Program-made: the position numbers and the translations under genes
The notes under the pieces: model-generated
The model's input: the letters and a program-made list of their open reading frames with translations, nothing else
The model's database searches: none
Told to the model about the DNA's origin: nothing
Origin: Candidatus Peribacteraceae bacterium
GTDB lineage: Bacteria; Patescibacteriota; Gracilibacteria; Peribacterales; Peribacteraceae
Assembly (NCBI GenBank): GCA_041666245.1
Contig: JBAYHG010000008.1
Location: forward strand, 16,049 to 80,048
Reading direction: 5' to 3'
Length of the DNA: 64,000 bases
Shown: in pieces, positions 13,380 to 49,753 of the stretch
Numbering within the stretch: the stretch's first letter is position 1
Layout of the letters: each line of letters opens with the position of its first letter

Positions 13380-13389
13380 AGAGGATAGT

Positions 13390-29643: not shown

Positions 29644-29664
29644 CGAGCTGACGGAGTAGACTGT
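29627..29664. repeat. Solo copy of the CAACCAGCTAACGAGCTAAC word repeat
   Basis: caaccagctcacgagctaacaacataacgagctgacgg resembles the right arm at 43994-44049 (caaccagctaacgagctaac). It overlaps the methyltransferase stop. Confidence 0.45.
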
Positions 29665-31835: not shown

Positions 31836-31914
31836 TTTCTCAACAGTATACCAAAATTTTGATGTTCCATCTAGGCCGCGGGATTGCCAAGGTTGCTGTC
31901 TGTCAAGGATGGAT

Positions 31915-32000
31915 CAGAGTAACAGAATAACAGAGTAACAGGGATTATCCTGAGAAAGGCCCTTCTCGAAGAGCCCTGTTATTCTGTTACTCTAATATTC
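31915..32000. repeat. Tandem-word fold-back repeat (word TAACAGAG/TAACAGAA)
   Basis: Left arm: cagagtaacagaataacagagtaacaggg. Right arm: ccctgttattctgttactctaatattc. It shares the 14-mer cctgttattctgtt with 61713-61749. Confidence 0.6.
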
Positions 32001-32038
32001 TTTCTCCGAGGAAAAGAAACGAGAAGCTCGGTTCCCAT

Positions 32039-35039: not shown

Positions 35040-35115
35040 TGGCAGGCGCGGTAGGGCTCGAACCTACGACCCCAGGTTTTGGAGACCTGTGCTCTACCAG
35101 CTGAGCTACGCGCCT
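35040..35115 (-). tRNA. tRNA-Trp (CCA anticodon), CCA end encoded
   Basis: Reverse complement: AGGCGCGTAGCTCAGCTGGTAGAGCACAGGTCTCCAAAACCTGGGGTCGTAGGTTCGAGCCCTACCGCGCCTGCCA. Cloverleaf with anticodon loop CTCCAAA. Confidence 0.9.
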
Positions 35116-35147: not shown

Positions 35148-37496
35148 TTATCCTCGTCTCCTCCACTTACTCGGCCCGCGCGCACGCCTCTTGGCGAGCA
35201 ACTCCGCGGCCTGATCCAGCGTGATGGTGCCGGGGGAGAGTTTCTTGCCGAGTGAGGCATTCGTCTTTCCGTCGCTCACATAGGGACCGTATCGGCCATC
35301 CTTCACCGCAATCGGACTCCCGGTGGCGGGGTCGGTGCCGAGCGTCCGGAGCGACTCGGCAGCTTTCTTTTTCTGCTCTTTGGAGGCGTGCATCAGCTCT
35401 TTCGCCTGCTCGAACGTGACGGTCAGCGGATCGATGCCTTTCAAGCTCACCGATGCCTCGCCGCACTTGAGGTACGGACCGAAACGCCCGATGGCGAGCA
35501 CGACCGGCTCGCCGTCCAGGAGCCCCAGATCCTTCGGGAAGGAAAGCAGCGCCAGCGCCTGCTCGAAGGTGACATCATCGACGGAAATGTGCTTCGGGAT
35601 TGATGCACTCTTGAGCTTGATCTTCTTCTTTCCTTTCCCCTTGGCCTCCGGAAGATCCTCCGGCCGGCCGAGTTGAACATACGGACCGAAGCGTCCTGTG
35701 CGTGCCACCACCGCCATGCCGGACTTCTCGTCCGTGCCGAGAATGCGCTCCTTGAGGACATCTTTCTTGGAGATCTCCTTCGTCTTGTCCTTCACGAGCT
35801 GCTCGAAGGGGCCGAAGAACGCGCGGAGGAACGCCGAGCCTTTCATTCCGCCCTCGGCGATGTCATCCAGGGACTGCTCCATCTTGGCCGTGAACGTGAG
35901 GTCCACGATATCGGTGAAGTGCTCCGCGAGGAGATCGGTGACGGTCATCGCGATGTCCTCCGGGATCAGTTGCTTGTTCTCCTTCTTGATGTATCCGCGC
36001 TGCTGAATGGTGGAGATGGTGGGAGCGTACGTGCTCGGCCGCCCGATGCCCTCCTCTTCCAGCTTCTTCACCAGACTCGCCTCGGTGTAGCGCGGGGGCG
36101 GCTTCGTGAAGTGCTGCTCGGGCTTCAGCTCCTCCAGATCCAGCGGGTCGCCTTCGTGCAACGGCGGCAGCAACTTCGCTCCCTCTTCAATGTCCTCTTC
36201 GGTACGGGCGTCTCCCTCATCCCGATCCTCGCGGTACACGCGGAGGAAGCCGTCGAAGAGGATGGTCTGGCCCGTAGCGCGGAAGGTGTAGCGGCCGGCG
36301 GTGATGTCCGCGCCGACGCGCTTCAGCTCCGCCTGCGCCATCTGCGTGGCCATCGTGCGATTCCAGATGAGCGTGTAGAGCTTGAGCTGCTGGTGATCGA
36401 GGATGCTTCCGAGGGACTCCGGCGTGCGCGAGACTTCCGTGGGGCGGATGGCTTCGTGCGCCTCCTGCGCGCCCTTGCTCTTCGTCTTGTAGCGACGCGG
36501 CTCGGCGAGAACGTACTCACGACCGTACTGTTTCTCGATCGTTGCCTTGCAGTCCTGGAGCGCCTTGTCACTCAGGTTCACCGAGTCCGTGCGCATGTAC
36601 GTGATGAGACCCATCATCCCCTCGCCCTTGCCGAGACTGACGCCCTCGTAGAGTTGCTGCGCCACGGCCATCGTCTGCTTCACGGAGAAACCGAGCTTGC
36701 GAGAGCCCTCCTGCTGGAGCGTGGAAGTGGTGAAGGGCGGCGGCGGCGTCTTCTTCAGCTCCTTCTCGTCCGTGGACCCGACGCTGTAGGACGCGTTCTT
36801 GAGCTCCGTGAGAACCGCATCCGTTTCGTCCTGCGTTCCCGGAACGAATTTCTTGCCGTCACGCTTGCTGAGTCCGGCAGTGAAGGATTCTTTCTTGGCG
36901 GTGTCGAGCAGCGCTTCGACCGTCCAGTACTCCTCCGGTTTGAACGCTTTGATCTCGCGCTCACGGTCCACGATAATCTTCACCGCGACGGATTGGACGC
37001 GCCCCGCGCTGAGCCCACGGTACACCTTCTTCCAGAGGAACGGCGAGAGCGTGTAGCCGACGAGCCGGTCCAGAACGCGGCGCGCCTGCTGCGCGTCGAC
37101 GAGCTTCATGTCGAGCGTGCGCGGATGCGCGACGGCTTCTTTGATGGCTGTCTCCGTAATCTCATGGAAGACGATGCGCTTGATCGTCTTGGGATCTTTC
37201 TTCAGAACCTGTGTGAGGTGCCAGCCGATAGCTTCCCCCTCGCGGTCCTCATCAGTCGCGATCCAGAGCTCCTCCGCCTCCTTCGCCGCGGCTTTCAATT
37301 TCTTCACGACGGATTTCTTCTCGTCGGGGACCTCGTACTCGGGCTCAAAGTCGCCTTCCGTATCCACGGCGAGAGAGCTCGAAGGCAAATCGCGGATGTG
37401 TCCCATGCTCGCCTCCACCGCGAAGTCCTTCCCGAGGAAGCGCTTGATGGTCTTGGCCTTGGCCGGTGACTCGACGATGACGAGATTTTGAGGCAT
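35148..37496 (-). CDS. topA: DNA topoisomerase I
   Basis: Toprim N-terminus MPQNLVIVESPAKAKTIKRFLGKDFAVEASMGHIRDLP; 782 aa with C-terminal repeats of GRFGPY-type zinc-ribbon-derived modules. Confidence 0.95.
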   Translation of the reverse strand: MPQNLVIVESPAKAKTIKRFLGKDFAVEASMGHIRDLPSSSLAVDTEGDFEPEYEVPDEKKSVVKKLKAAAKEAEELWIATDEDREGEAIGWHLTQVLKKDPKTIKRIVFHEITETAIKEAVAHPRTLDMKLVDAQQARRVLDRLVGYTLSPFLWKKVYRGLSAGRVQSVAVKIIVDREREIKAFKPEEYWTVEALLDTAKKESFTAGLSKRDGKKFVPGTQDETDAVLTELKNASYSVGSTDEKELKKTPPPPFTTSTLQQEGSRKLGFSVKQTMAVAQQLYEGVSLGKGEGMMGLITYMRTDSVNLSDKALQDCKATIEKQYGREYVLAEPRRYKTKSKGAQEAHEAIRPTEVSRTPESLGSILDHQQLKLYTLIWNRTMATQMAQAELKRVGADITAGRYTFRATGQTILFDGFLRVYREDRDEGDARTEEDIEEGAKLLPPLHEGDPLDLEELKPEQHFTKPPPRYTEASLVKKLEEEGIGRPSTYAPTISTIQQRGYIKKENKQLIPEDIAMTVTDLLAEHFTDIVDLTFTAKMEQSLDDIAEGGMKGSAFLRAFFGPFEQLVKDKTKEISKKDVLKERILGTDEKSGMAVVARTGRFGPYVQLGRPEDLPEAKGKGKKKIKLKSASIPKHISVDDVTFEQALALLSFPKDLGLLDGEPVVLAIGRFGPYLKCGEASVSLKGIDPLTVTFEQAKELMHASKEQKKKAAESLRTLGTDPATGSPIAVKDGRYGPYVSDGKTNASLGKKLSPGTITLDQAAELLAKRRARGPSKWRRRG

Positions 37497-37876
37497 GAAG
37501 AAAAGTGTTGGGATGCGATGGGGGAGACTAGTCGTGCAGCACGGATGCTGTCAAAAGGAAGAGAACGTGTGATGCCCGGAACCTGCGCGCATCGAACATG
37601 CATCTCCGAGATGCAGCGTTGTGTCAGAGAAATGGAAGCTGGAAATTTCGCTTCGTGAAGCCGATTGACAAACATAGTTTACAGGACACGATGCAAGATT
37701 TTGGCTAACTGTAGCCATCCCTCCGACTCACGTTTGTATTCAATCTTTTTGGCTTCCGGAAGCCAGTGTTATGTCTGATTGCCTTGTGTAAGCCAAAAGA
37801 TCGCTCAGGTGGCCTTGCGACGCAATATTCACAGCGTAAACTTCCAATCGTCATATTTCCTTCCCCCTTCCCTTCT

Positions 37877-38152
37877 ATGTCCAAGCAGGAACTGATCGCC
37901 GCGATCGCGGACGCCGCTGGCATCACCAAGCGCGCCGCCGGTGACGCCTTGCAGGCGATCATCAATATCGTCATCAAGAACCTGAAGAAGGGCCAGCCGG
38001 TCACGGTCACGGGCTTCGGGACGTTCAAGCTCAGCCATCGCGCTGCACGCATGGGCGTCAACCCCCGCAACCCGACCCAGAAGATCTCCATCCCGGCGAT
38101 GAAGGTCCCCTCCTTCAAGGCAGGCAAGACCCTCAAGGACGCCGTCCGGTAA
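37877..38152 (+). CDS. hup: HU-family DNA-binding protein
   Basis: MSKQELIAAIADAAGITKRAAGDALQAIINIVIKNLKKGQPVTVTGFGTFKLSHRAARMGVNPRNPTQKISIPAMKVPSFKAGKTLKDAV is a canonical HU. Confidence 0.9.
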   Translation: MSKQELIAAIADAAGITKRAAGDALQAIINIVIKNLKKGQPVTVTGFGTFKLSHRAARMGVNPRNPTQKISIPAMKVPSFKAGKTLKDAVR

Positions 38153-38176
38153 TCAGTATCGCGTCAGTTGGAAAAG

Positions 38177-38201
38177 GCCTCCGTAATCCGGAGGCTTTTT
38201 T
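38177..38201 (+). terminator. Intrinsic terminator of hup
   Basis: Stem gcctccg (38177-38183) / cggaggc (38189-38195), loop taatc, followed by TTTTTT (38196-38201). Confidence 0.8.
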
Positions 38202-38214
38202 CGTTTCCGGAGTT

Positions 38215-38327
38215 TTTGAATATTTGAGTATTAGAATATTAGAGTATTCGGGTTTGCTGATAAGCGCTCGCTGTAGAGAGACGCATCTCGAAGATCTCAA
38301 ATATTCGAATATTCTAGTACTCTAATC
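38215..38327. repeat. Tandem-word fold-back repeat (words GAGTATT/GAATATT)
   Basis: Left arm: tttgaatatttgagtattagaatattagagtattcg. Right arm: caaatattcgaatattctagtactctaatc. It shares the 15-mer gaatattagagtatt with the array at 61585-61600. Confidence 0.6.
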
Positions 38328-38381
38328 TCTTCTCCGCCTAGAAAAGGAACTTCGTTATTCCCAAGCGTCCCTGTCCCCGGT

Positions 38382-38927
38382 ATGATGCCGCTACTCACCA
38401 TGGATGCTTCGATGATCAAAGACATTCTCGGCTCGCTCCTCAAGAATCTCCCTTTCACCGTCACGGAGATCGTCGTGACGGAGGAGAAGGATGTGACGCG
38501 CGTGGACCTGAAGTCCGACGACGCCAGCCGCATCATCGGGTGGCACGGCGAGACGCTGAACGCCGTCCAGCACCTGCTCAAGTCCATCATCCGGTCGAAG
38601 GAGAATCTGGAGAAGAGCCCCTTCATCGTGGTGGATATCGACGGCTACCGCCGCAGTCAAGAAGAGAAAGTCTGCCGCATTGCCGACCAAAAAGCTGACT
38701 TCGTCCGCCGCACGGGCAACCGCATCGCGCTGGCGCCGATGTCGCCTTATTTCCGCCGCATCGTGCACATGTACGTGGCCAACGCGCCGCAGCTTCAGGA
38801 CCTCACGACGGAGAGCGTGGGCGAGGGCGAGTACCGCCAGATCGTCCTGCGCATGAAAGAAGAACAGAGCGAAGAATTGTCACCTGTGATGAGTGAGGAT
38901 GCGGGGTTGGAGAATTTGGACGTTTAG
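38382..38927 (+). CDS. jag: Jag/KhpB-like RNA-binding protein (KH plus R3H domains)
   Basis: KH-type ASRIIGWHGETLNAVQHLLKSII and R3H-type MSPYFRRIVHMYVAN. No Jag_N domain is visible. Confidence 0.75.
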   Translation: MMPLLTMDASMIKDILGSLLKNLPFTVTEIVVTEEKDVTRVDLKSDDASRIIGWHGETLNAVQHLLKSIIRSKENLEKSPFIVVDIDGYRRSQEEKVCRIADQKADFVRRTGNRIALAPMSPYFRRIVHMYVANAPQLQDLTTESVGEGEYRQIVLRMKEEQSEELSPVMSEDAGLENLDV

Positions 38928-38929
38928 TA

Positions 38930-38994
38930 CAATTGATAATTGATAATGGATAATTGAAAATTTCGGATAATTATCAATTTTCCATTTTCCATTC
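38930..38994. repeat. Tandem-word repeat (TGATAAT/GGATAAT then complement GGAAAAT words), weaker fold-back
   Basis: Sequence: caattgataattgataatggataattgaaaatttcggataattatcaattttccattttccattc. It shares the 13-mer tcaattttccatt with the right arm at 613-647. Confidence 0.45.
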
Positions 38995-39006
38995 GTGCGA
39001 GCGGCG

Positions 39007-40092
39007 TCACCCGCGAGCGCGCTTCCACTCCTCCAAAATCTTCCTCTCTTCCCGCGAAAGCTTGGTCGGCACTTTGACCTTCACCGTGACGAAGTGATCG
39101 CCGAAGCGGGACGTACTGAGGACGGGCAACCCCTTTCCTTTGATCCGGAGAATGGCGTCGGGCTGGGTGCCTTCGGGAATCTTGAATGAAACTTTTCCCT
39201 GCACCGTCTCGACGTCCACGGTTGTGCCGAGGGTGGCATCAAGGACACCGAGGTCAAGATTGGAACGGATGTCCGCACCCTCGCGCTGGAAACGCGGGTC
39301 GGGACGGACACGGACATGCACGTAGAGATCTCCCGCTTGAGCTCCCCTGCGTCCCGCCTCACCCTCGCCACGGAGCCTCAGCTGCTGCCCGTCATCGATG
39401 CCGGCGGGGATATCGACGGTGACTGTCTCGGTCTTCTGGATGCGACCCTCGCCGTCACACTCCTTGCACGGCTTCTCGGGAACCTTGCCGCTGCCGCGAC
39501 ACTTCGGGCAGACCGTGCGCTGCTGGATCGCACCAAAGAAGGACTGTGCCGTGCGCGTTACCTGGCCCGTGCCACCGCACTCGGAACATGTGATGACGGA
39601 CGAACCCGGTTCCGCTCCGCCGCCCTTGCACCGATCACACGCACGCAGCCGCCGGATTTTGAACTGGCGCCTCGCTCCGGTGACGACGTCTGAGAATTCG
39701 ATCAACACCTCCACCTCCGTGCTCTGTCCCTCCTGCTCCCGCGCGGCACGTCTCCCGCCGCCGCCGAAGAATCCCTCGAAGAGATCGGAGAACGATTCCG
39801 CCCCGCCGAAGTCGAATCCGCTGAAATCAAACCCCCCCTGTCCGCCGCCGAATCCGCCTCCCGCCTGCCCGTTCACTCCGGCCTCGCCGAACTGATCGTA
39901 CGCCTGCTTCTTCTGCGGATTGGAGAGGACCTCGTACGCCTCGTTGATCTCCTTGAACTTCCGCTCCGCTTCCTTATTCCCCTTATGTTTATCCGGGTGC
40001 AGCTCTTTGCTCAGGCGGCGGTACGCCTTCTTGATATCGTCGGGGGAAGCCCCCTTGGACAAGCCCAAAACACCGTAGAAATCCTTGGCCAT
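39007..40092 (-). CDS. dnaJ: Molecular chaperone DnaJ
   Basis: J-domain MAKDFYGVLGLSKGASPDDIKKAYRRLSKELHPDK, a G/F-rich region, and four CxxCxGxG zinc-finger motifs. Confidence 0.95.
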   Translation of the reverse strand: MAKDFYGVLGLSKGASPDDIKKAYRRLSKELHPDKHKGNKEAERKFKEINEAYEVLSNPQKKQAYDQFGEAGVNGQAGGGFGGGQGGFDFSGFDFGGAESFSDLFEGFFGGGGRRAAREQEGQSTEVEVLIEFSDVVTGARRQFKIRRLRACDRCKGGGAEPGSSVITCSECGGTGQVTRTAQSFFGAIQQRTVCPKCRGSGKVPEKPCKECDGEGRIQKTETVTVDIPAGIDDGQQLRLRGEGEAGRRGAQAGDLYVHVRVRPDPRFQREGADIRSNLDLGVLDATLGTTVDVETVQGKVSFKIPEGTQPDAILRIKGKGLPVLSTSRFGDHFVTVKVKVPTKLSREERKILEEWKRARG

Positions 40093-40155
40093 TTCCCTCT
40101 CAGCATAGCGAAAGTTGGGCTGTAAACGAAGCCCTGTTTATGGTAGAATGTTCTG

Positions 40156-41193
40156 ATGCCCTCACTGAAACAAACATCACGAATTCTCAGCCTTCTCACG
40201 CTCTCCTTTGCGGCTTGCGCAACCGGTCTCGGATGGTCACTCTGGAACGCCGGAATGCCTCCCGTTGCAGCACTCTCACTGCCGAAGATCGGATACGATC
40301 CATGGACCACACTCGATTATGAGGAACTGGAGGACGGGGCGACGGTCCCTGCCAACGTGAACGTGATCTTCCGCCTGCCCATCGACATGCCGCTGACCAG
40401 GAGGGATACGCTCTTGGGGAACCTCGGCGAAGACGTGCGATACTGGGGTTACTGCTTCTACAACAAAGATGATCCGGAGGACTCACGTCAGAGCAACGGG
40501 TTCCCCGGACGCATGTTCCTCTCTGAAGCGGAGCGCGATGTCCGCGAACGACAGGTCATGCAACAGGCGGGGCGCTACTCCATCTTCGATCCACCCACAC
40601 AAGCCGAGCTGGAACGGGATGATGCGATATTGCAGTTCCACAGCAATATCCGTCACCAGATCGAAGTCTTCCACGGCGGACAGAGCTGCTACATCCAGAC
40701 ATCTGCACCGTTGCCGATCGGCGTCGATCGCGACGACGACGGACTGAACACGGCGCTGGAGAAACAGTACGGGACGGATCCCACGACGCCTGACACGGAC
40801 CAGGACAATGCGTCGGACAGCGTGGAAGTGCTCTACCTCCACACCAACCCTCTCGATCCGGATTCCGATGGCGACAACCTGCTCGACGGCATTGAAGTGC
40901 ACGGACACTCACACATCACCGCCGAAGACACGAACCCCCTCAATCCGGATTCCGATGGCGACACGCTCTGTGACGGTTACTGCGTCGTGGACAGAAATCG
41001 TCGCTACTGTCCCGTGGATGATACGAGCAATTGCATCGAAACGGTCAATCGCTGGGCCGGCGAGGACAAGAACCTCAACGGCACCGTCGATGAAGGCGAG
41101 AGCAACCCGCTCCTGAAGGACAGCAACAGCGACGGAATCTACGATGAACAGGATTTCTACAACTGTCTCCTCAATGGAGGCACGGATTGCTAA
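40156..41193 (+). CDS. Secreted/lipo-protein with thrombospondin type-3-like calcium-binding repeats
   Basis: Signal/lipobox-like LLTLSFAAC. Repeated DxDxDGxxDxxE motifs: DPDSDGDNLLDGIE, NPDSDGDTLCDG, DRDDDGLNTALE, DSNSDGIYDEQD. Confidence 0.7.
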   Translation: MPSLKQTSRILSLLTLSFAACATGLGWSLWNAGMPPVAALSLPKIGYDPWTTLDYEELEDGATVPANVNVIFRLPIDMPLTRRDTLLGNLGEDVRYWGYCFYNKDDPEDSRQSNGFPGRMFLSEAERDVRERQVMQQAGRYSIFDPPTQAELERDDAILQFHSNIRHQIEVFHGGQSCYIQTSAPLPIGVDRDDDGLNTALEKQYGTDPTTPDTDQDNASDSVEVLYLHTNPLDPDSDGDNLLDGIEVHGHSHITAEDTNPLNPDSDGDTLCDGYCVVDRNRRYCPVDDTSNCIETVNRWAGEDKNLNGTVDEGESNPLLKDSNSDGIYDEQDFYNCLLNGGTDC

Positions 41194-41218
41194 GAAACGC
41201 GTTTTCCGCTACAATACT

Positions 41219-41725
41219 ATGATGCTCACGATCCTCACTGCCATCATTCTCGGACTCTCACAACCCCGGCAGGCACTGGCCTACCTGACGCCGGAGGAAG
41301 TACTGCTCCGTGAGCAGGCCAGTTTCTACTCGCTGCCGGACCCGTATCTGACTCCCAACTCCCGACGCGTACGCTCCATCGTCGATGAACGGGCGCAGGA
41401 ACGGACAGCGAAGTACCCGGACCCTTCGCCCGTTCTCCATGCAGCCGCAGAGGATTCCTCTTCGTCGGGAGCGATTGAAACGGAGGAGGCGAGTACTTCG
41501 TCCGAGGGCGGGTCGACCGGAGACAACACGGACCTGAGCGTGGTGGAACTGCGCCTCCTCGAACGCTACGAGCGTCGGGCCATCGCCGCCAACAGCGTCC
41601 TCTCGCACCAGAGCGCGCCGCTGACTCCCACGGGACCGGAAGCGTACGCAACGGTGGCGATCATGCTCGGATCCGTCGGATGGACGATGTATCGGGCGAA
41701 GAGAGCGAAGGGGTGGAAATTCTGA
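41219..41725 (+). CDS. Hypothetical protein with signal peptide and C-terminal TM anchor
   Basis: MMLTILTAIILGLSQPRQALA signal and AYATVAIMLGSVGWTMY near the C-terminus. No family recognised. Confidence 0.5.
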   Translation: MMLTILTAIILGLSQPRQALAYLTPEEVLLREQASFYSLPDPYLTPNSRRVRSIVDERAQERTAKYPDPSPVLHAAAEDSSSSGAIETEEASTSSEGGSTGDNTDLSVVELRLLERYERRAIAANSVLSHQSAPLTPTGPEAYATVAIMLGSVGWTMYRAKRAKGWKF

Positions 41726-41806
41726 AGGCAGAAACGTGAGGAAAGGCAGAAATGGCAGGGAGGTATTTTGCATAGGGAACGTTTCTGCCCTCCGTTCCCC
41801 GCCTCC
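41724..41806. repeat. Tandem-word fold-back repeat (word AAGGCAG), sister copy of 30745..30838
   Basis: Left arm: gaaggcagaaacgtgaggaaaggcagaaatggcagggagg. Right arm: gtttctgccctccgttccccgcctcc. Confidence 0.65.
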
Positions 41807-41913
41807 ATAGAACGCCTTTTTCTCTTTCTAAAAGCCAAAAAGTTGGTGTGCAAGAAATGGTTTGCATGCCGCGCACTCCGGAGAATACCGGGCCTCTGCT
41901 ACCGTGTGCACCG

Positions 41914-43587
41914 ATGACCAAAGTGTCGCTCACCGGCAGGGAATGGCGCTTCGAAGAAAGAGATGCCGAGGATCCCGGCATCCTTCTCTCCCGTCTTGCC
42001 GGGCTGCGTTCCATCGACCTCGGAGCGTCGGCCCCGCTTCCGTTCGAGAGCACGGATCACCAGCCGCCCGACCTCGCCCGGGCGATCGAGCGACTGAAGC
42101 TGGCCTTCTCACGTGACGAACGCATCGCCGTCTTCGGGGACTATGACTGTGACGGCATTACGGCAGCCGCGCTCATGGCGCGGTTTCTCGCACGTCACGG
42201 CACACACCCTCTGATCCGGCTTCCGCACAGGCTCCATGACGGTTACGGACTGAAAGAGGAGAACGTACGACACCTGAAGGACGAGGGAATCAGTCTCCTC
42301 ATCACCGTGGACACGGGTGTCTCCGCGGGACCCGCTCTGCACCTCGCGAAGGAATGCGGAATGGACGTGATCGTGATCGACCACCACCACCTGCCACAGC
42401 GCCTGCCGGACACGATAGCGATCCTGCACCCGCTCCTCGCAGGATACGACCAGAGCCCCCCCTCGGCCGCAGGACTCGCCTACGGCGTCATCGCAGCCTA
42501 CGAACGAGAGGAGGGGAGGGATGACTGGGAGGGAAAATCCGGGGACCTGGCACTCGCCGCCACGGGGACCGTCGCCGATCTTGTGGAACTCCGCGGGACG
42601 AACCGCTCCCTCGTGACGCAGGGTCTCGCCGCGTTCGGCTGCCTCTCGCCTGACGAACCGATCGGGAAGCTCGCACGACAGGCGGGTATCACGGGCGTCC
42701 CGACGAGCTCCGATATCGCCTACCGCATCGCCCCACGGCTGAATGCCGCCGGCCGCATGGCGGATCCATCGATCGCGCTGCGGGCAATTCTGGACGGAGA
42801 TGACGCGCTTGCGACGCTCGAACAGCTCAACCGCGACCGACAGAGTGAGACGCTGCGGCTGCTCAAAGATCTCGACCAATCGCCTCTCGATCTCTCGCTC
42901 CCGCTCCTCCTCCTCGCAGACGAGAAGTACCCCGCAGGCATCGTGGGACTCATCGCGGGGAGGCTGACGGAAGCGCACGGACGTCCAAGCTTCGTGGCAC
43001 AGATCCAGGGCGATGTCTGCACGGCATCGTTGCGCAGCATCCCCGGCTATCACATCACGGAAGCACTGCGCCACGCATCCGATCTCCTCCTCTCCTTCGG
43101 CGGACATGCGATGGCGGCGGGCTGCACCTTCCGGACCGAACTCCTTCCGCAACTCACCGATCGTCTCCTCGCACATGCTTCCGAACGTCTGAACGCGGCA
43201 GAGCTTCGCCCGATCCTCGAGATCGACGCCGCCCTCGACACCACGGGGGTCACGCTCGCACTCTGCGAAACACTCTCGAAGCTGGAGCCGTTCGGACAGG
43301 GAAACCGCGAGCCGCGCTTCATCCTCTCCAACGTGATGATCAGCAACATGAGGCGTGTCGGAAAGGACGGTGTACACCTCCAGGCACGCGTTGGCGGCCT
43401 CAAAGGAATTGGGTTTCGTCTGGGAACTCTCCTCCCACAAATCAACGATGCAGTGGATGTCGCCTGTCGTCTCTCCATTGACGCATGGGAAGGGAAGAGC
43501 CAACCGCAGCTCCTCATCGAGGACGTGAGAGCAGCAGAAGATGCTCCTATTCCTACGGCATCGAAACATTTCTCGTTAGCTGGTTAG
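41914..43587 (+). CDS. recJ: Single-stranded-DNA-specific exonuclease RecJ
   Basis: DHH-family motifs: IAVFGDYDCDGITAAALM, LLITVDTGV, VIVIDHHH. Start uncertain (41848 or 41914). Confidence 0.85.
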   Translation: MTKVSLTGREWRFEERDAEDPGILLSRLAGLRSIDLGASAPLPFESTDHQPPDLARAIERLKLAFSRDERIAVFGDYDCDGITAAALMARFLARHGTHPLIRLPHRLHDGYGLKEENVRHLKDEGISLLITVDTGVSAGPALHLAKECGMDVIVIDHHHLPQRLPDTIAILHPLLAGYDQSPPSAAGLAYGVIAAYEREEGRDDWEGKSGDLALAATGTVADLVELRGTNRSLVTQGLAAFGCLSPDEPIGKLARQAGITGVPTSSDIAYRIAPRLNAAGRMADPSIALRAILDGDDALATLEQLNRDRQSETLRLLKDLDQSPLDLSLPLLLLADEKYPAGIVGLIAGRLTEAHGRPSFVAQIQGDVCTASLRSIPGYHITEALRHASDLLLSFGGHAMAAGCTFRTELLPQLTDRLLAHASERLNAAELRPILEIDAALDTTGVTLALCETLSKLEPFGQGNREPRFILSNVMISNMRRVGKDGVHLQARVGGLKGIGFRLGTLLPQINDAVDVACRLSIDAWEGKSQPQLLIEDVRAAEDAPIPTASKHFSLAG

Positions 43588-44049
43588 CATGTTAGCTCGT
43601 TATGTACTTCAAGACGTTCGAAGAAATTGAGGTGTGGCAGGCAGCGAGGCTTCTCATGAGAAAAGTTAGAATATTCACACGTCGAGCGATGGAAAAGAAA
43701 GATTGGGGATGGGCAGATCAAGTGACACGCTCAACTCTCTCCATTATGGCGAACATCGCAGAGGGAAATGACGCTCAAACGAATGTGGAATTCATCATGT
43801 ACCTTGGATATGCAAAAAGATCGGGCGCAGAAACACGTTCACATTTGTATTACGGGTTGGATGAAGGATATGTCCTGAAAGAAGAATTTGAGGATACCAT
43901 TCAGTTGTGCAGGAAAATAACCGCACAGCTGGGGAAACTGATTCAATACTTGCAACAGCACAGAGCTGCAAAACATAGAGGCGTCTCTTCATGAACAACC
44001 AGCTAACGAGCTAACTCGTCAACGAGCTAACAAATTTGTGACGAGCTCC
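43574..44049. mobile_element. Cassette: four-helix-bundle gene bracketed by inverted GCTAAC-word arms (IVS-like architecture outside rRNA)
   Basis: Left arm 43574-43601: cgttagctggttagcatgttagctcgtt. Right arm 43994-44049: aacaaccagctaacgagctaactcgtcaacgagctaacaaatttgtgacgagctcc. The interior is visibly AT-richer than its flanks. Confidence 0.45.
43602..43994 (+). CDS. Four-helix-bundle protein (23S rRNA intervening-sequence protein / Avd-like family)
   Basis: FEEIEVWQAARLLMRKVRIFT, TRSTLSIMANIAEGN and YLGYAKRSGAETRSHLYYGLDEGYV match the TIGR02436-type pattern as I recall it. Confidence 0.8.
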   Translation: MYFKTFEEIEVWQAARLLMRKVRIFTRRAMEKKDWGWADQVTRSTLSIMANIAEGNDAQTNVEFIMYLGYAKRSGAETRSHLYYGLDEGYVLKEEFEDTIQLCRKITAQLGKLIQYLQQHRAAKHRGVSS

Positions 44050-44051
44050 TT

Positions 44052-44276
44052 TTAGACCGGGGCCAGTTTACCTTCCATGAAGAACACATCCGTAACCTCG
44101 GCGCTCAGTGCAGAGGCGATCTTGTAGGCGAGGAGAACGGACGGATTGGTGCGACCGCGCTCGATGGACATGATGGTCTGGCGACTCACACCTGTGCGCA
44201 GCGCAAGTTCCTCCTGTGTCATGCTCCGCTCGAAACGGAGGCGGCGGATGGCATTCTTCAGGAGGATGGCAGGCAT
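44052..44276 (-). CDS. XRE-family helix-turn-helix transcriptional regulator (74 aa)
   Basis: LRFERSMTQEELALRTGVSRQTIMSIERGRTNPSVLLAYKIASAL is a classical Cro/C1 HTH. ATG at 44276. Confidence 0.75.
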   Translation of the reverse strand: MPAILLKNAIRRLRFERSMTQEELALRTGVSRQTIMSIERGRTNPSVLLAYKIASALSAEVTDVFFMEGKLAPV

Positions 44277-44538
44277 GGGGAGGAGGGTGAGAGGATCCGG
44301 GGAGTTGTACCGTCTGGAAGCGCATTGTACTGATGCCAGCGAGAGGAGCAAGGGGTCACGACTCTCCCTGTTGTTCAACGACGAACCGGGACAGTGAAAC
44401 GAAACGATCGAACCGCATCATGGAGGAATCCATCCTGCCCTCTCTTCTGAGATCCCGCAATACCTCACAAGTTGCTTCGCTTGGCCACCCTGAGTTTTTG
44501 CAGGAAACAAGCCATCTTTGATACCATCACCCGCTGAG

Positions 44539-44979
44539 ATGAGCTCTTCTCCCTTCCACGGCATCTTCAGCGCACTCAGCCAGGGGGCTTTGAAGGGGAA
44601 ACTGTCTCTCGATGAAGAGGAATCTGCGACGGAGGAGAAGGGTGAGCGGAGCGTCGGACGCGTGGCCGTGGACATCTACGAACAGGACGATTACTACATT
44701 ATCAAAGCGCCCATCGCAGGCGTCCGGATGGCCGATCTGGACATTGAGGTGAACGAGAATGTTCTCACGATACGAGGGAACCGACGGCAGACCGACGACG
44801 TGGCGGCGGGGCAGTACTATTTGCAGGAATGTTTCTGGGGACCCTTCAAACGTTCCGTCACGCTCCCCTGTGTCATCGATCCCAAGCGGGTGAGAGCGAC
44901 ATTCAACAAGGAAGGCATTCTGAAAGTCCTGGTTCCGAAAGAAGAGAAGGTGAAAATCGTGAAAATCAACGAAGGTTGA
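44539..44979 (+). CDS. Hsp20/alpha-crystallin small heat-shock protein
   Basis: VDIYEQDDYYIIKAPIAGVRMADLDIEVNENVLTIRGNR ... FKRSVTLPCVIDPKRVRATFNKEGILKVLVPK is a typical ACD. Confidence 0.9.
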   Translation: MSSSPFHGIFSALSQGALKGKLSLDEEESATEEKGERSVGRVAVDIYEQDDYYIIKAPIAGVRMADLDIEVNENVLTIRGNRRQTDDVAAGQYYLQECFWGPFKRSVTLPCVIDPKRVRATFNKEGILKVLVPKEEKVKIVKINEG

Positions 44980-45054
44980 AACCGAGAGTGCCGCCTGCCC
45001 TGAGCGATCCCGCGCAAGCGGGAGAGTCGAAGGGTGAAGATCAACGAAGGGTGA
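44959..45054. repeat. Imperfect 21-nt direct repeat of the hsp20 3' end flanking a GC-rich palindromic insert
   Basis: gtgaaaatcaacgaaggttga (44959-44979) versus gtgaagatcaacgaagggtga (45034-45054) match at 19 of 21 positions. The insert carries gccctgagcg and hairpin tcccgc-gcaa-gcggga (45008-45023). Confidence 0.55.
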
Positions 45055-45057
45055 GCC

Positions 45058-45417
45058 TCACTTCCTCTTTGACTTTTTTGTCGTCTTCTTCTTCCTGCTC
45101 ATCCTGACGACCGCGGACCGTGCGGCACGGGCGGGCATTCTCTTCGCGAGACGCTTCCGCACGCTCCCCGCAACGGGTGATGTCCGGAGTTTCAGGATAA
45201 CTTCCGCCGGAAGTTTCACGAGTGAGTCGAACACATCCATGCCGCCCATGTAACGCCAGTCGACGACGTTCAGAAGCTTCTCGAACTCCCGCATGGCACT
45301 ACGAACCTCCTTCCGCGCATCCGGATCGCGCAGGTCGCTCTCGAGCGAGGTGAGCAGTTTCGTCTGGAGGAGGTACAAATTGTGCACGCGATCAAGGGCT
45401 CGGTCGGCGTTCGTCAT
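45058..45417 (-). CDS. Hypothetical helical protein with highly basic C-terminal tail
   Basis: MTNADRALDRVHNLYLLQTKLL ... SRKKKTTKKSKRK. Start uncertain (45417 or 45450). No family recognised. Confidence 0.4.
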   Translation of the reverse strand: MTNADRALDRVHNLYLLQTKLLTSLESDLRDPDARKEVRSAMREFEKLLNVVDWRYMGGMDVFDSLVKLPAEVILKLRTSPVAGSVRKRLAKRMPARAARSAVVRMSRKKKTTKKSKRK

Positions 45418-45679
45418 GGGGAGTGGTGGGAATGTGAATGTTCGAATCATTGTAGCGTTTTGAGACTGAAACGTCAAACCTGTCACGAATTCCCGAGCGG
45501 ATCGGCAGATAGATAAACGGGGCTTTAGCCCTTCTGTAAGCCAAAATTCGTATGTCAGCTCGAATGGACATTTGAGAATGGCTCCTGGATGCGAAAAGAT
45601 CATGTTACGCGCGAGAAGTCACTCACCCCACGCGCCAACGACAGACGGGCCGCCCATTCTCCGGAGTAACATGTCCGGC

Positions 45680-46252
45680 ATGAGCATCGTGACGAAGAAA
45701 GGCGACGGCGGCGAAACAGGCCTCCTCGGAAAGACACGTCTCCCGAAATCCGACGTGCGCTTCCATGCCATGGGGACGGTGGATGAATTGAATGCATTGG
45801 TGGGAGCGGCTCTTTCATCCCTCATCCCCAGCCCCTCTCCCGAGGGGAGAGGGGAGCACGTTTCACCACGAATTGAGTCTCAACTGATTCGACTCCAGCA
45901 CCTCCTCTCCCGTCTCGGCGCGGATCTGGCTTCTCCGGAGGGAACAAAGGATGTGATACGAATCGGGACGGAACACACGAAAGAGATTGAGGAGTGGATC
46001 GGGGCGTTGGAATCCTCCCTGCCGCCTCTCTCGGTCTTCATCCTGCCGGGAGGATCCGGCGGCGGGGCACGCCTCCATGTCGCCCGCGCCGTCTGCCGCC
46101 GCGCGGAGCGATGGACCGTGGCGCTCTCGGAATTCGAGGACATCAACCGCGAGGCGATCATCTTCCTGAACCGGCTCGGAGATTATTTGTTTCTGGCCGC
46201 GAGAGAGGTGAATCGTGCGGCGGGAGCAGCGGAAGTGAAGGCAGCGTACTGA
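45680..46252 (+). CDS. PduO-type ATP:cob(I)alamin adenosyltransferase (MMAB family)
   Basis: TKKGDGGETGL, GTVDELNALVG and LSVFILPGGSGGGARLHVARAVCRRAER match family motifs. Start at 45671 or 45680. Confidence 0.85.
   Translation: MSIVTKKGDGGETGLLGKTRLPKSDVRFHAMGTVDELNALVGAALSSLIPSPSPEGRGEHVSPRIESQLIRLQHLLSRLGADLASPEGTKDVIRIGTEHTKEIEEWIGALESSLPPLSVFILPGGSGGGARLHVARAVCRRAERWTVALSEFEDINREAIIFLNRLGDYLFLAAREVNRAAGAAEVKAAY
45832..45854. repeat. GC-rich perfect palindrome lying in frame inside the adenosyltransferase gene
   Basis: cccctctccc-gag-gggagagggg is a 10-bp stem. It is translated as PSPSPEGRGE between the conserved DELNALVG block and the IESQLIRLQ block. Confidence 0.6.
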
Positions 46253-46313
46253 AAGAACGCCGGCAACGGGGGTGAACCCGCTGCCGGACCGTCCTGTTTT
46301 TCTAAGACCATTA

Positions 46314-46562
46314 TCAGGTCTCGCTCACGAGGATGAAGTCGTTCTCTCCCTGACGGCGGAACCTCCGCTTGCTGACGTCTTCCCGGAGCTTCTCCATCGC
46401 CACACCGTTGAGCGAGGCAACATTGAGCCACGGGACTCTCTGTTCTTCGCGGGTGAAAGGACAGACGAGGAGGAGATCCTCATCAGACGGGGGATCGAGC
46501 AGTCTGGTCATCCAGAGATCCTTCCACTGTGCGCAGCTCTTCTCGCCGAAGGGAGCCGCCAA
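46314..46562 (-). CDS. Hypothetical protein, or 3' fragment of a disrupted gene
   Basis: 82-aa ORF (WKDLWMTRLLDPPSDEDLLLVCPFTREEQRVPWLNVASLNGVAMEKL). No family recognised. It lies 44 nt downstream of ORF 46607..46867 in another frame. Confidence 0.3.
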   Translation of the reverse strand: MAAPFGEKSCAQWKDLWMTRLLDPPSDEDLLLVCPFTREEQRVPWLNVASLNGVAMEKLREDVSKRRFRRQGENDFILVSET

Positions 46563-46606
46563 CCACTCCTCCGGAACACTGACGTGGCACGCTCTGACGA
46601 ACGAAT

Positions 46607-46867
46607 TCAGCCATTGCGTTCCCTGCTATGCCATCCAGACAGAGTAGAGAACTGGGGATTGGCATGTGGAGCGTAGAAGGCTCCCTGCGCGCACATGAGG
46701 GATCGCTCCCCTGTCATACGTGCCGTGTCTCCGCGCCGGAGTACCGGGTTCGTCGCATTCGCTGCCTTTGCGGCACTGTCCGGCACATACACGTCGCGCA
46801 GGAGAACCACAATGAACGGTTCGGAGGAAATCGGCTTCTGTCGATGTGCCACCAAGTGTCTTTTCAT
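46607..46867 (-). CDS. Hypothetical protein, or 5' fragment of a disrupted gene
   Basis: 86-aa ORF (MKRHLVAHRQKPISSEPFIVVLLRDVYVPDS). No family recognised. Confidence 0.3.
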   Translation of the reverse strand: MKRHLVAHRQKPISSEPFIVVLLRDVYVPDSAAKAANATNPVLRRGDTARMTGERSLMCAQGAFYAPHANPQFSTLSGWHSRERNG

Positions 46868-46963
46868 CGCTCACCTCAACTTTCTATGAGTGGACTGAAA
46901 CATGGCCGGAGAAAAAAAGAACGGAGGGTCAGAATACTGCATATTCTTGCATCCAACAACGCG

Positions 46964-47314
46964 TCACTTCGGCCAGAAATTCAACACGAGGAGGAGTACA
47001 AAGAAGACAATCAGCGGCGCGCCGATGCTCAGGGCGAGCCTCCATGAGTGCCGTTCGGAAGAGCGGAGACTCAGATACAAACTCATGCCTGCGTACAGCA
47101 GCGACGTGAGGACGAGCGGGAGATCGGCGACCTGCATCCACCACGCGGGCCACACCCCCAAGACACTCTTGGCGAGGAGCATGTACGCGATGAAGAACGT
47201 CGCACCGAGGACGTAGAAGAAGAACGCGGAGAGTTGATGGATGGTTCGGATCACAGCCGGAAGTATATCACACCGAATGAGGTGCCTGATTCTGCTGATC
47301 GGTGAGGAACGCAT
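46964..47314 (-). CDS. Hypothetical integral membrane protein (three predicted TM helices)
   Basis: LSAFFFYVLGATFFIAYMLLA, WWMQVADLPLVLTSLLYAGMSLYL, LALSIGAPLIVFFVLLLVLNF. Confidence 0.5.
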   Translation of the reverse strand: MRSSPISRIRHLIRCDILPAVIRTIHQLSAFFFYVLGATFFIAYMLLAKSVLGVWPAWWMQVADLPLVLTSLLYAGMSLYLSLRSSERHSWRLALSIGAPLIVFFVLLLVLNFWPK

Positions 47315-47560
47315 CTCTTCCTGATATCTTTGGATCTAATCCGTAGAGAAATGCTCTCGCCTGCTCAAACGTCATTCCCCTCATATCGACATCATCCTGC
47401 GTCTCCGGCGTGCCGGTTCCGCTTTCGGCTTTCACTCCTGGCTGTTCCGAAGATGGGGAATCCTGCTCCATTGGAGCGGGATGGTACTCCAACTGCTCTC
47501 AAGCACAAGAACAGAGCAGCAACTATCTGGAAAACGGCATCCAATTCAAGAAATATCGAG

Positions 47561-47600
47561 CAAACCAGCAAACGAGCTAACGAGAAATCGTTCGAGCAGC
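47561..47600. repeat. Third copy of the CAACCAGCTAACGAGCTAAC-type word repeat, just downstream of rpmH
   Basis: caaaccagcaaacgagctaacgagaaatcgttcgagcagc. Compare 43998-44017 and 29627-29646. Confidence 0.4.
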
Positions 47601-47602
47601 GT

Positions 47603-47758
47603 TCACAGTTGTCGCTTCTTCTTCCGATGCTGCACCGTGAGGATCTTGCGTCCCGTGCGGCGGCGGCGCGCAAGAACTTTGCGGCCGTTCGCCGTTTTGC
47701 TTCGCTTCAGGAACCCGTGGGTTCGAAGCCGCCGTCTCCATCTGAGCTTATTCAACAT
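47603..47758 (-). CDS. rpmH: 50S ribosomal protein L34
   Basis: MLNKLRWRRRLRTHGFLKRSKTANGRKVLARRRRTGRKILTVQHRKKKRQL matches the L34 consensus (RTHGF..R..T..GR.VL..RR.KGRK.LTV). It is the C-terminal 51 codons of the otherwise spurious ORF 47603..48451. Confidence 0.85.
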   Translation of the reverse strand: MLNKLRWRRRLRTHGFLKRSKTANGRKVLARRRRTGRKILTVQHRKKKRQL

Positions 47759-47926
47759 AGCCGCGAGAGAGTACAGGAGGGGCGGGATGAGGTAAAGGGA
47801 AGATCTGAGAGGAAACCGGGGCATCCGACGAAACCGAGGAGTATGAATCCTTGGATTCTCCGGGTTCCTCGGCTTCCCATCATCCTTTGCTGGTTCTAGC
47901 CCCGCTCTTTCAGTAGACTCCGCCCC

Positions 47927-49186
47927 ATGTACACCGTCTCCAACCTCAAAAGCGGCCTCCCCGTCCTCACGGCCGGCAGTGATGCCACGGCTTCCGTGAC
48001 CGTCCTCGTCTTCGCCGGCGCCGGCTCGCGTTACGAAACGCAGAAAGACCGCGGCATCAGCCACTTCCTGGAACACATGTTCTTCAAGGGCGGAAAGAAA
48101 TTCCGCAACACGAAGGAAGTGAGCGCCGCCATCGACGGCGTCGGCGGCGACTTCAACGCATTCACGGGCAAAGAGTATGCGGGCTACTACGTGAAAGTGG
48201 CGGCGGAGCACGTGCGTCTCGCGTGCGACGTCCTCGGCGACATGCTGCTCAATGCCTCCTTCCCCCCCGAGGAAATCGAGAAGGAGCGCGGCGTCATCAA
48301 AGAGGAAGAACGGATGTACCAGGACACGCCCATGTATCGGTCCGGCTGGGACTTCGAAGAACTCCTCTTCGGCGACCATCCGCTGGGTTGGGACACCATC
48401 GGCACGATGGAGGTGATCAATTCGGTGCAGCAGAAAGATTTTAGGAATCATCGCGACGTTCTCTACACGCCGAAGAATCTCGTGGCGGCGTTCGCGGGGA
48501 AGATCACGGCGAAGGATGCGGAATCGCTCTCGAAGGAGTACTTCGGCGAGCTCTCCGGCGAGAGCAAGCCGTCATTCCATCCTTTCACGAACTACAACAC
48601 GAAGAAAATCTTCCTCCGGACCAAGGCCACCGAGCAGGCGCACCTCGTCTTCGGGATGCCGGGCGTGTCCGCGCTCGATCCCGACCACTTCACACAGAAA
48701 CTCCTCGCCGTGATCCTGGGCGGCAACATGAGCTCGCGCATGTTTCTCAACATCCGCGAAGCGAAGGGGCTGTGCTACTACATCTCCACCGACATCGACA
48801 GCTACCTGGATGCCGGCTCCCTCTCCACCCGTGCGGGCGTGGATCAGGCACGGCTGGAGGAGGCGATCGTCGCCATCCGCAAGGAGTACGAGACCTGCGC
48901 GAAGGACGGTGTGACGACGGAAGAGCTGGCTCGGGCGAAATCCTTCATGAAGGGCAAGATCGCCCTCTCGCTCGAGGACTCCGAGGAGCTGGCGCACTTC
49001 CTCGGAAAGCAGCAGCTCCTGTATCCGACCGTGCGCGACGTCGCCGACTACTTTGCAGAGATCGAGAAGGTGACGCTCCCGGCAGTGAATGCGCTGGCGA
49101 AGCGGCTCCTCACCCCCGAGCAATTCAGGCTCTCGGTGATCGGGAAAGAGAGTGATGAGAAGAAGCTCCAGGCGCTGTTGGAGTGA
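47927..49186 (+). CDS. M16-family (pitrilysin/insulinase-like) zinc peptidase
   Basis: Inverted zinc motif HFLEHMFFKG (HxxEH) near the N-terminus; 419 aa, two-lobe length. Confidence 0.85.
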   Translation: MYTVSNLKSGLPVLTAGSDATASVTVLVFAGAGSRYETQKDRGISHFLEHMFFKGGKKFRNTKEVSAAIDGVGGDFNAFTGKEYAGYYVKVAAEHVRLACDVLGDMLLNASFPPEEIEKERGVIKEEERMYQDTPMYRSGWDFEELLFGDHPLGWDTIGTMEVINSVQQKDFRNHRDVLYTPKNLVAAFAGKITAKDAESLSKEYFGELSGESKPSFHPFTNYNTKKIFLRTKATEQAHLVFGMPGVSALDPDHFTQKLLAVILGGNMSSRMFLNIREAKGLCYYISTDIDSYLDAGSLSTRAGVDQARLEEAIVAIRKEYETCAKDGVTTEELARAKSFMKGKIALSLEDSEELAHFLGKQQLLYPTVRDVADYFAEIEKVTLPAVNALAKRLLTPEQFRLSVIGKESDEKKLQALLE

Positions 49187-49268
49187 CGCAGAAGCGGCTA
49201 CTCCCCGTCTACCGGAACACTGCCCGCGAAAACCGCCCCTTCCTTTCGCACGTACTTTCGGCTATACA

Positions 49269-49709
49269 ATGGCAACTTCCCCGTCTCCCATGCAGCAGAC
49301 CCTCATCCTCCTCAAACCGGACGCCATCCAGAAGCGACTCGTCGGCCGTGTCATCGCGCGGTTCGAGGAAGCGGGCTTCACGATCCGCGGATGCAAGATG
49401 CTGCACCTGCGCAAAGAGCTTCTGCGCGAGCACTACGCACACATCGCGGACAAACCTTTCTACCCCGACGTGGAGGCCTTCATGAGCTCAACACCGGTCA
49501 TCGCACTGGTACTGGAAGGCAAGGACGTCGTGACGAAGGTACGGGACATGCTGGGCGTCACCGACAGCAGGAAAGCGGCTCCGGGCACGATCCGCGCCGA
49601 GTTCGGTGTGGATCAGATGATCAATGTGGCACACGCGAGCGACTCGCCGGAGACGGCCGTGAAGGAGGTGAAGCGGTTCTTCGCCGAGGACGAGCTGCAC
49701 GACTACTGA
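49269..49709 (+). CDS. ndk: Nucleoside diphosphate kinase
   Basis: QQTLILLKPDAIQKRLVGRVIARFEEAGFTI ... NVAHASDSPETAVKEVKRFF (active-site NxxHxSD). Confidence 0.95.
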   Translation: MATSPSPMQQTLILLKPDAIQKRLVGRVIARFEEAGFTIRGCKMLHLRKELLREHYAHIADKPFYPDVEAFMSSTPVIALVLEGKDVVTKVRDMLGVTDSRKAAPGTIRAEFGVDQMINVAHASDSPETAVKEVKRFFAEDELHDY

Positions 49710-49739
49710 AAAAAGAAGCCCCTCTCTCGAAGGGCTTCT
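49708..49739 (-). terminator. Intrinsic terminator of the giant surface-protein gene (shared convergent gap with ndk)
   Basis: Stem agaagccc (49714-49721) / gggcttct (49732-49739). The A-run at 49709-49713 gives a T-tract after the stem on the minus strand. Confidence 0.7.
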
Positions 49740-49753
49740 CTCTGGTATCGCTC

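Follow-up and report, generated by a model that had tools for sequence, protein, structure and literature searches.

A four-helix-bundle gene between tandem-word arms at the recJ/XRE junction of a Peribacteraceae bacterium: a probable free-standing relative of rRNA intervening sequences

Between recJ and a convergent gene for an XRE-type helix-turn-helix (HTH) protein, a 64-kb stretch of DNA from Candidatus Peribacteraceae bacterium (hereafter the window, to which all coordinates refer unless they carry an L label) holds a cassette of ~460 nt, in which two complementary arms of ~30 nt, built of tandem 7–9-nt words, bracket one gene for a four-helix-bundle (4HB) protein of the PF05635 / TIGR02436 family. 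The explanation that fits best, and which is considered probable while leaving appreciable room for doubt, is that the cassette belongs, as a free-standing copy, to the same family of elements as the intervening sequences (IVSs) of 23S rRNA that bear an open reading frame (ORF), and that it is co-transcribed with recJ and processed at its stem.

In the mechanism proposed, the arms would close a loop carrying the gene for a 4HB protein of putative pentamer type. We infer from the position of the cassette at the recJ 3′ end, and from the lack of a recognisable cassette promoter, that it is transcribed as part of the recJ RNA. The arms would pair in that RNA as a stem of ~24–27 bp sequestering the start-codon region, and this stem is probably an RNase III substrate, by analogy with the cleavage demonstrated experimentally in rRNA-borne relatives. 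Cleavage would free the 4HB message and leave the recJ mRNA with a paired 3′ end, so that insertion at the ends of genes or within operons, even essential ones, would do no harm.

The cassette and its junction

The left (5′) arm (43572/43575–43602, plus strand) comprises 3.5 tandem 8-nt words of the type GTTAGCNN, reading GTTAGCTG GTTAGCAT GTTAGCTC GTTA over 43572–43602, with the ATG of the 4HB gene directly adjoining. This gene, the cargo of the loop, encodes 130 amino acids (aa) (43602–43994, plus strand). The right (3′) arm (43997–44031, plus strand) begins 3 nt past its stop codon and is made of NNGCTAAC words complementary to the left arm, in the order AACCAGCTAAC GAGCTAAC TCGTCAAC GAGCTAAC. 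An inverted-repeat search gave complementarity of 82% over 28 nt and of 77% over 30 nt, and the two arms account for six of the window's nine GTTAGC hexamers. An earlier note on this DNA had given the right arm as ~50 nt, which is too long: the array itself spans ~35 nt, with weaker pairing beyond it, to ~44046, in the RNA fold. The co-oriented upstream host gene, recJ (41848–43587, plus strand), was identified by profile matches and conserved synteny. As that note had pointed out, the left arm overlaps the recJ stop, a TAG at 43585–43587, so that the last five recJ codons and the stop are encoded by the arm. The convergent XRE-type gene runs from 44378 to 44052 on the minus strand. Across the 4HB ORF the GC content is 0.44–0.45 against 0.60–0.65 in recJ, ~15 points below the flanks, in agreement with the AT-richness first noticed.

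Folding of 43560–44050 as RNA placed an arm–arm stem in both the minimum-free-energy and the centroid structures (z = −3.2; none of 100 shuffles was as stable), and the arm stem is likewise present in the predicted fold of an orthologous cassette on the related contig L008. A promoter and terminator scan returned no sigma-70-like promoter between 43000 and 44600. The cassette encodes no transposase or recombinase and none adjoins it; its neighbours are recJ, XRE, Hsp20 and cobalamin adenosyltransferase genes, and no integrase lies near it among the identified neighbours.

The 130-aa 4HB ORF proposed in the earlier note is confirmed by the ORF call and by hidden Markov model (HMM) matches to PF05635 (E 2.5e-24, 86 bits against a cutoff of 33.8) and TIGR02436 (E 7e-25, 87.4 bits against a cutoff of 24), and these, together with structure prediction, place the protein in the rRNA-IVS / 4HB family as had been suggested. 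An AlphaFold2 monomer model built on 47 homologues has a predicted local distance difference test (pLDDT) score of 94.7, with helices at residues 10–31, 35–56, 61–88 and 93–119. Its best Foldseek matches are Xcc0516 (2GSC; template modelling (TM) scores 0.81/0.93) and BT_0352 (2RLD; 0.74/0.88). The relation to the Avd accessory proteins of diversity-generating retroelements (DGRs), also raised in the earlier note, stands at the level of the fold, with bAvd (4DWL) matched at a TM score (TMq) of 0.72 and a root-mean-square deviation of 1.8 Å, but goes no further, identity being 12% and the E-value 0.3. The notion that the gene is itself a DGR Avd draws on this shared fold, on matches to chains of the DGR ribonucleoprotein 8UB7, on a common Pfam clan-level family, and on PF05635 being the Pfam family that matches Avd proteins (PMC10053308). 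It is nevertheless highly improbable, as 2GSC and 2RLD, structures from outside DGRs, resemble the protein more closely, the context is one of housekeeping genes, all neighbours within ~±2.5 kb are identified with no reverse transcriptase (RT) among them, synteny is conserved with and without the gene, and no direct repeat of the template-repeat/variable-repeat (TR/VR) type occurs in 36000–52000. The lack of a nearby RT and of a TR/VR pair effectively refutes a DGR Avd at this locus.

The closest homologues of both the 4HB protein and RecJ come from Candidatus Peribacteria / Peribacteraceae of the candidate phyla radiation (CPR), the nearest available RecJ being 57% identical, and an exact-protein look-up of the 4HB ORF had as its sole match a 1.6-kb contig identical to the window. 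Between cassettes, the ratio of nonsynonymous to synonymous substitution rates (dN/dS) is 0.04–0.10 with synonymous sites saturated, and it is ~0.1 against the L008 orthologue; ratios this low indicate that the protein is functional and under strong purifying selection. The arms are also constrained. In two copies from one genome (contigs L006 and L007) they are ~82% identical by hand count though the proportion of synonymous differences (pS) is 0.75, and therefore evolve more slowly than silent sites. TIGR02436 comprises 4,939 representative clusters at E ≤ 1e-3, and we regard the 4HB protein as the element's own factor rather than as a host gene. Contig L006, from the Peregrinibacteria, carries two 4HB genes 4 kb apart (4001–4459 and 8370–8459), after rpsT and recA, and a third of the same assembly lies on L007.

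Three homologues from Peribacteria, at unrelated junctions after ftsZ, rpsT and a transaldolase gene, are built alike: related GTT-rich words form the left arm, and words complementary to them the right. Five Peribacteria cassettes at four junctions (recJ/XRE, ftsZ/dut, rpsT/ruvX and tal/ROK) can be aligned from left arm to right arm, with flanks that are unrelated; judged by these alignments, arms and ORF are inherited and dispersed together as a single unit. Four other Peribacteraceae contigs share the gene order dnaJ, TSP3 gene, hypothetical, recJ, position X, XRE, Hsp20, hypothetical, cobalamin adenosyltransferase, hypothetical, rpmH, in which position X is variable. In L008 it holds the orthologous cassette (71% protein identity), with words GGTTGCTG/GTTACTG in place of GTTAGCNN and arms that are still complementary. 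In L090 (4643–5098) it holds a member of a different PF05635 subfamily (127 aa, 36 bits) between AAGCACC/GGTGCTT heptamer arms, the 4HB ATG overlapping the recJ stop (ATGA) and the left arm lying inside the recJ coding end. The ORF-less recJ/XRE junctions that the earlier note proposed to look for in sister genomes exist in L088 and L089, where X consists only of a 60–90-nt fold-back of GTATTAC/GTAATAC words. Because X holds a cassette, another subfamily or an ORF-less fold-back in these relatives, the cassette has, as read from sequence comparison, been gained at or lost from this junction during the evolution of the Peribacteraceae.

The same junctions bear on whether the 4HB gene works with the convergent XRE regulator as a module of two genes, such as a toxin–antitoxin or defence pair. 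The two are adjacent in the window, L008 and L090, but XRE occurs without a 4HB gene at the same place in L088 and L089, the 4HB cassettes of related genomes adjoin unrelated genes, PADLOC found no defence-system match, and the genes are convergent rather than co-transcribed. Such a module, contradicted by the ORF-less junctions, is very unlikely.

Arms and fold-backs beyond recJ

The wider family was sampled as 80 relative-encoding loci from species-representative genomes (Anaerolineae, Bipolaricaulota, Nitrospirae, Ignavibacteria, Acidobacteriota, Bacteroidota and others), and 81 loci with full flanks were tested for arms by aligning the upstream 100 nt to the reverse complement of the stop-codon region, with z > 3 against shuffles taken as significant. 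Shuffles and neighbour-gene controls were used in place of a mismatched-locus control, in which word types common to unrelated loci push up the highest scores. Inverted arms proved significant at 57 of the 81 4HB loci (median z 6.5), against 4 of 73 when the longest neighbouring ORF of each locus served as control, and arms around other 4HB genes, on whose absence the earlier note would have given up its reading, are thus common. A chance origin of the arms in the window was considered and is ruled out by these counts and by the concentration of GTTAGC hexamers within them.

Arm length has a median of 28 nt (interquartile range (IQR) 23–33); the right arm starts a median of 2 nt past the stop codon, and the left arm ends a median of 20 nt ahead of the ATG, leaving room for a Shine–Dalgarno sequence. 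Tandem periodicity is enriched in the 4HB flanks, with word spacings of 7 nt (192 cases), 8 nt (80) and 9 nt (29). The words themselves vary by locus and include GTCAAAG, GTTCAAN, GTCCAAA, GGTAGCNN, CGTTGCA and TTGAATYT, yet the arms of each locus stay complementary to one another (median arm–arm score 27 within a locus, 15 between mismatched loci), a pattern which indicates compensatory evolution on a large scale, pairing being conserved while the words drift. The 4HB ORF is AT-richer than its flanks at 79 of 83 loci (median −9.3 points), and low GC in the window's cassette is therefore a family trait and does not point to recent transfer. At 61 of 75 loci the neighbour upstream has the same orientation, and the gap to it has a median of 58 nt, in keeping with embedding in operons. 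Across this sample, tandem-word arm architecture appears as the rule for the 4HB family and not as a peculiarity of the recJ locus.

Arms of this kind also occur around loops without a gene. The window has at least seven ORF-less word hairpins (501–647, 13387–13479, 15284–15369, 20977–21072, 24229–24326, 31913–32001 and 38210–38326), whose arms consist of tandem 7–9-nt words (GGAAAATG, AGTACNN, GGAAAGA, AGAGTAAC, GAGTATTA and others) and whose loops measure 22–81 nt. Going by unchecked gene models, all seven are found where a long ORF ends or close by, with 501–647 inside the uncharacterised ORF 188–1324. Similar fold-backs stand at syntenic junctions in relatives (L088 1110–1223 and L090 973–1068), with the same GCAGAGGAT words.

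A metagenome scan with the right-arm 19-mer AACCAGCTNACGAGCTAAC returned 18 foreign loci, of which about five are likely chance matches; the window's own contig was not returned, and none of the 18 encodes a 4HB protein. The scan uncovered a dispersed family of ~80-nt ORF-less fold-backs with sharp homology edges, located immediately 3′ of stop codons. The arms (...GGTTGCTGGAT / ATCCAGCTAACC...) of these fold-backs match those of the L008 cassette, in which the ORF replaces their 16–18-nt loop; given this match and the position of the ORF, fold-backs and cassettes are, at the level of sequence, two forms of one thing. The link that the earlier note had drawn between the word fold-backs and a protein-coding member is borne out by this family and by the fold-backs at the ORF-less junctions. 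The loop sequences hold no decisive remnant that would tell deletion derivatives from insertions into fold-back loops.

Two solo arrays in the window resemble single cassette arms. The first, a right-arm homologue (AACCAGCTCACGAGCTAAC...AACGAGCTGAC; 29618–29652, plus strand), spans a methyltransferase stop codon (29641–29643), ends 10 nt before an HD-hydrolase start at 29663, and has no partner arm within reach. The second (47555–47581, minus strand; CTCGTTAGCTCGTTTGCTGGTTTGCTCG) lies directly downstream of rpmH and shares the outer boundary ATTTCTCGTTAGCT with the left edge of the cassette. By hand count each matches a cassette arm at ~74% identity over 39 nt, a length that takes in the boundary. 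Both had been listed in the earlier note as solo right-arm copies, at 29627–29664 and 47561–47600; their existence stands, the coordinates required revision, and the second is a left-arm homologue on the minus strand. It opens a stretch of ~288 nt after rpmH that is unassigned before the next gene (47315–47602, minus strand); the same spacer measures 13 nt in L089 and holds a word fold-back in L088 (7552–7635). This stretch may be a decayed cassette, although a six-frame hmmsearch of the window with profile A1 detected no second 4HB copy or remnant, the 288-nt spacer included. Separately, metagenome contig L092 carries, at ~960–1075, a one-directional array of ~14 octamers of the NNGCTAAC type, the window's right-arm word, with no inverted partner in view.

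Known systems and alternative readings

Knowledge of IVSs goes back to ~1990; where they come from and what their conserved ORF does are open questions in the literature (PMC4990558). That of Coxiella burnetii, in helix 45 of 23S rRNA, has 428–444 nt, a 28-bp terminal stem and an ORF (S23p) in the loop, with two to three tandem GACAGAT heptamers, depending on the strain, in the 5′ arm just ahead of the ATG; the first repeat is where RNase III cleaves the stem, and GC is below that of the genome (PMC4990558, where the IVSs of Leptospira and Haemophilus are also cited). The cassette resembles it in size, in its inverted-repeat stem, in the tandem words before the start codon, in the single same-family ORF of the loop, in a GC content below that of the host, in scattered distribution and in suspected mobility. 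It differs in lying at recJ/XRE instead of in rRNA, in using octamers (GTTAGCNN) rather than GACAGAT heptamers, in an ORF with dN/dS of ~0.1 where that of Coxiella is reported as untranslated and decaying, and in that RNase III cleavage, demonstrated there, is inferred here. The earlier note had recognised the stem-plus-ORF layout of an rRNA IVS outside any rRNA, and both halves hold: the layout matches the anatomy of the Coxiella IVS, and an Rfam scan of the window found no rRNA. A strict IVS lies inside 16S or 23S rRNA, replaces a helix tip and is cut out of the precursor RNA by RNase III with no re-ligation; the cassette has the terminal stem and the 5′ tandem repeats and, because it is located outside rRNA, is IVS-like and not an IVS in the strict sense. 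Insertions in the 16S and 23S rRNA of CPR bacteria can likewise carry PF05635 ORFs (PMC11270868), and cas operons have such ORFs between their genes (PMC3936711).

A further member comes from Xanthomonas campestris, where the orthologue of Xcc0516 (L109 2431–2873) lies between accB and accC, inside 30-nt arms of GGGAATC words. These arms, GGGAATCGGGAGTGGAGAATCGGGAATCGG and CCCATTCCCCATTCTCGACTCCCTATTCCC, are complementary at 27 of 30 positions by hand count. The right one runs up to the accC ATG, and the left one encodes residues 1–10 of the Xcc0516 protein that was crystallised. Word arms around this orthologue of the structural archetype are an independent prediction of the unifying idea that joins IVSs, dispersed 4HB genes and word arrays, and they are present in the sequence. 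Xcc0516 and BT_0352 share family and fold with the cassette protein, and the former its word-arm layout as well; in the papers open to search both are annotated as uncharacterised proteins, and no account of arms or cassette behaviour was found for either.

Intergenic arrays of tandem heptamers or octamers have been described in several groups, and short tandemly repeated repetitive (STRR) sequences are one such type. Geobacter metallireducens has 24 intergenic pairs of four GTTGCTYN octamers, termed 'class 1 global regulator sites' and interpreted as IHF/HU sites (PMC2700814); Xanthomonas has 70–75 convergent pairs of GGGAATC heptamers, interpreted as G-quadruplex formers (PMC4692102); and TAACTGA arrays occur in Beggiatoaceae, cyanobacteria and Bacteroidetes (PMC4679880). 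Like the cassette arms, these arrays have words of 7–8 nt in three to five tandem copies, form opposite-strand pairs at variable distance and lie near gene ends. The Geobacter octamer is nearly the Peribacteria arm word, and the Xanthomonas heptamer is the word that flanks Xcc0516. The papers that describe them treat the arrays as regulator sites, G-quadruplexes or translational signals, with no cargo gene and no link to IVSs or 4HB proteins (PMC2700814, PMC4692102, PMC4679880), and a full-text literature search found no paper joining arms, free-standing 4HB genes and IVSs. Unlike an integron gene cassette, in which a single attC hairpin follows a promoterless ORF beside intI, here the arms bracket the ORF and the copies are scattered singly among housekeeping genes.

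Several observations weigh against a free-standing IVS-like element processed as RNA. At 24 of the 81 loci inverted arms are not significant; at five loci the arrays on the two sides are direct ones only. Arm pairing is equal on the sense and antisense strands (33 vs 24 loci, p = 0.62, ~1.2 G–U pairs per stem), so that the sequences favour neither an RNA-level nor a DNA-level role. Loosely, the words conform to GTYNAAN, and their polarity with respect to the ORF is fixed: among the 57 armed loci (from L002–L087), the 5′ arm has its GTY words on the sense strand in 42 and on the antisense strand in 9. A plain double-strand-RNA signal does not account for this polarity; shared ancestry, or a binder specific to one strand, may lie behind it. 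The Coxiella ORF is reported as apparently untranslated and decaying (PMC4990558), and the rRNA analogue therefore gives no guide to the role of the protein. An RNase III signature search of the 64-kb window found no gene, a result that says little about the rest of the genome, and in this organism both co-transcription and cleavage are putative.

In the first of two further readings the arms work chiefly as DNA, the cassette being hairpin- or cruciform-forming mobile DNA, akin to a miniature inverted-repeat transposable element (MITE) or a fold-back element, with the RNA stem as a by-product. The arms would then be substrates of insertion, excision or replication template switching. This is compatible with an IVS-like element, from which it differs on what selection maintains. 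We consider it possible, if on the doubtful side. The sharp homology edges at the outer arm ends, seen in cassettes and in the ~80-nt ORF-less family after stop codons, would suit it, as would presence and absence at the recJ/XRE junction, the lack of any sense/antisense pairing asymmetry, the constant offset at which IS110 and IS481 copies of G. metallireducens lie within GTTGCTYN array pairs (PMC2700814), and the variable heptamer number among Coxiella strains, which points to DNA slippage. Measured against MITEs and insertion sequences, the cassette has inverted ends and dispersed sharp-edged copies, but the flanks inspected by eye have no target-site duplication, and no transposase or recombinase is available from the element or next to it. 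Moreover, the arm sequences diverge while the protein is conserved, a poor fit to a sequence-specific transposase, and the arm length suits an RNase III substrate, cleavage having been demonstrated for the rRNA members.

The second reading, which is unlikely, treats the word arrays as protein-binding sites, one protein to each 7–8-nt word, with arm complementarity secondary. The putative binders are a regulator of global or nucleoid type (IHF/HU, which has been suggested in Geobacter), a single-strand binder of the cold-shock protein (CSP) type, or the 4HB pentamer itself. The GTYNAAN consensus, the strict 7/8/9 spacing and the polarity to the ORF are what such sites would produce; solo arrays without a partner, the five loci with direct arrays only, and the near-identity of the GTTGCTYN octamer in Geobacter and Peribacteria agree with it, and regulator or CSP binding has been proposed earlier (PMC2700814; PMC4679880). 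Many arms, however, depart from the consensus (GGGAATC in Xanthomonas, AAGCACC in L090, GACAGAT in Coxiella), and complementarity within each locus is kept as the words change, which a simple array of sites does not require. The IVS-like element co-transcribed with recJ remains the reading preferred.

Other features of the window and significance

The Rfam scan assigned to the window two tRNA genes (20595–20668 and 35043–35115, both on the minus strand) and a 6S RNA gene (28689–28842, minus strand; 50.1 bits against a gathering score of 46.4). Two very long ORFs are present, both on the minus strand, of 3043 aa (49754–58885) and 1520 aa (1530–6092). The gene upstream of recJ contains a 49-nt direct repeat of 82% identity (40841–40976) that corresponds to repeated Asp-rich motifs, and its orthologue in relatives matches the TSP3_bac family.

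A broader proposal, held tentatively and rather less likely to be right than wrong by some distance, is that tandem-word hairpin elements form one widespread selfish or mobile class. The rRNA IVSs would be copies that landed in rRNA helices, and the 4HB (Avd-like) protein would be the sole dedicated factor, for instance as a chaperone of nucleic acids, bringing in a polymerase or RT of the host or driving the switching of templates at hairpins. ORF-less fold-backs and arrays, such as those of GGGAATC in Xanthomonas and GTTGCTYN in Geobacter, possibly the cyanobacterial STRR and TAACTGA arrays, and the window's seven, would be non-autonomous derivatives.

TIGR02436 has thousands of clusters and two crystal structures, and no known function. 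If the preferred reading is true, rRNA IVSs, dispersed 4HB genes and the unexplained intergenic heptamer and octamer arrays of several phyla would be one kind of element, and old questions about IVSs would become testable in tractable organisms, for example at accB–Xcc0516–accC of X. campestris. The arms can add codons to neighbouring genes, as in the recJ tail here and the start of Xcc0516, and they may set sites of mRNA processing within essential operons.

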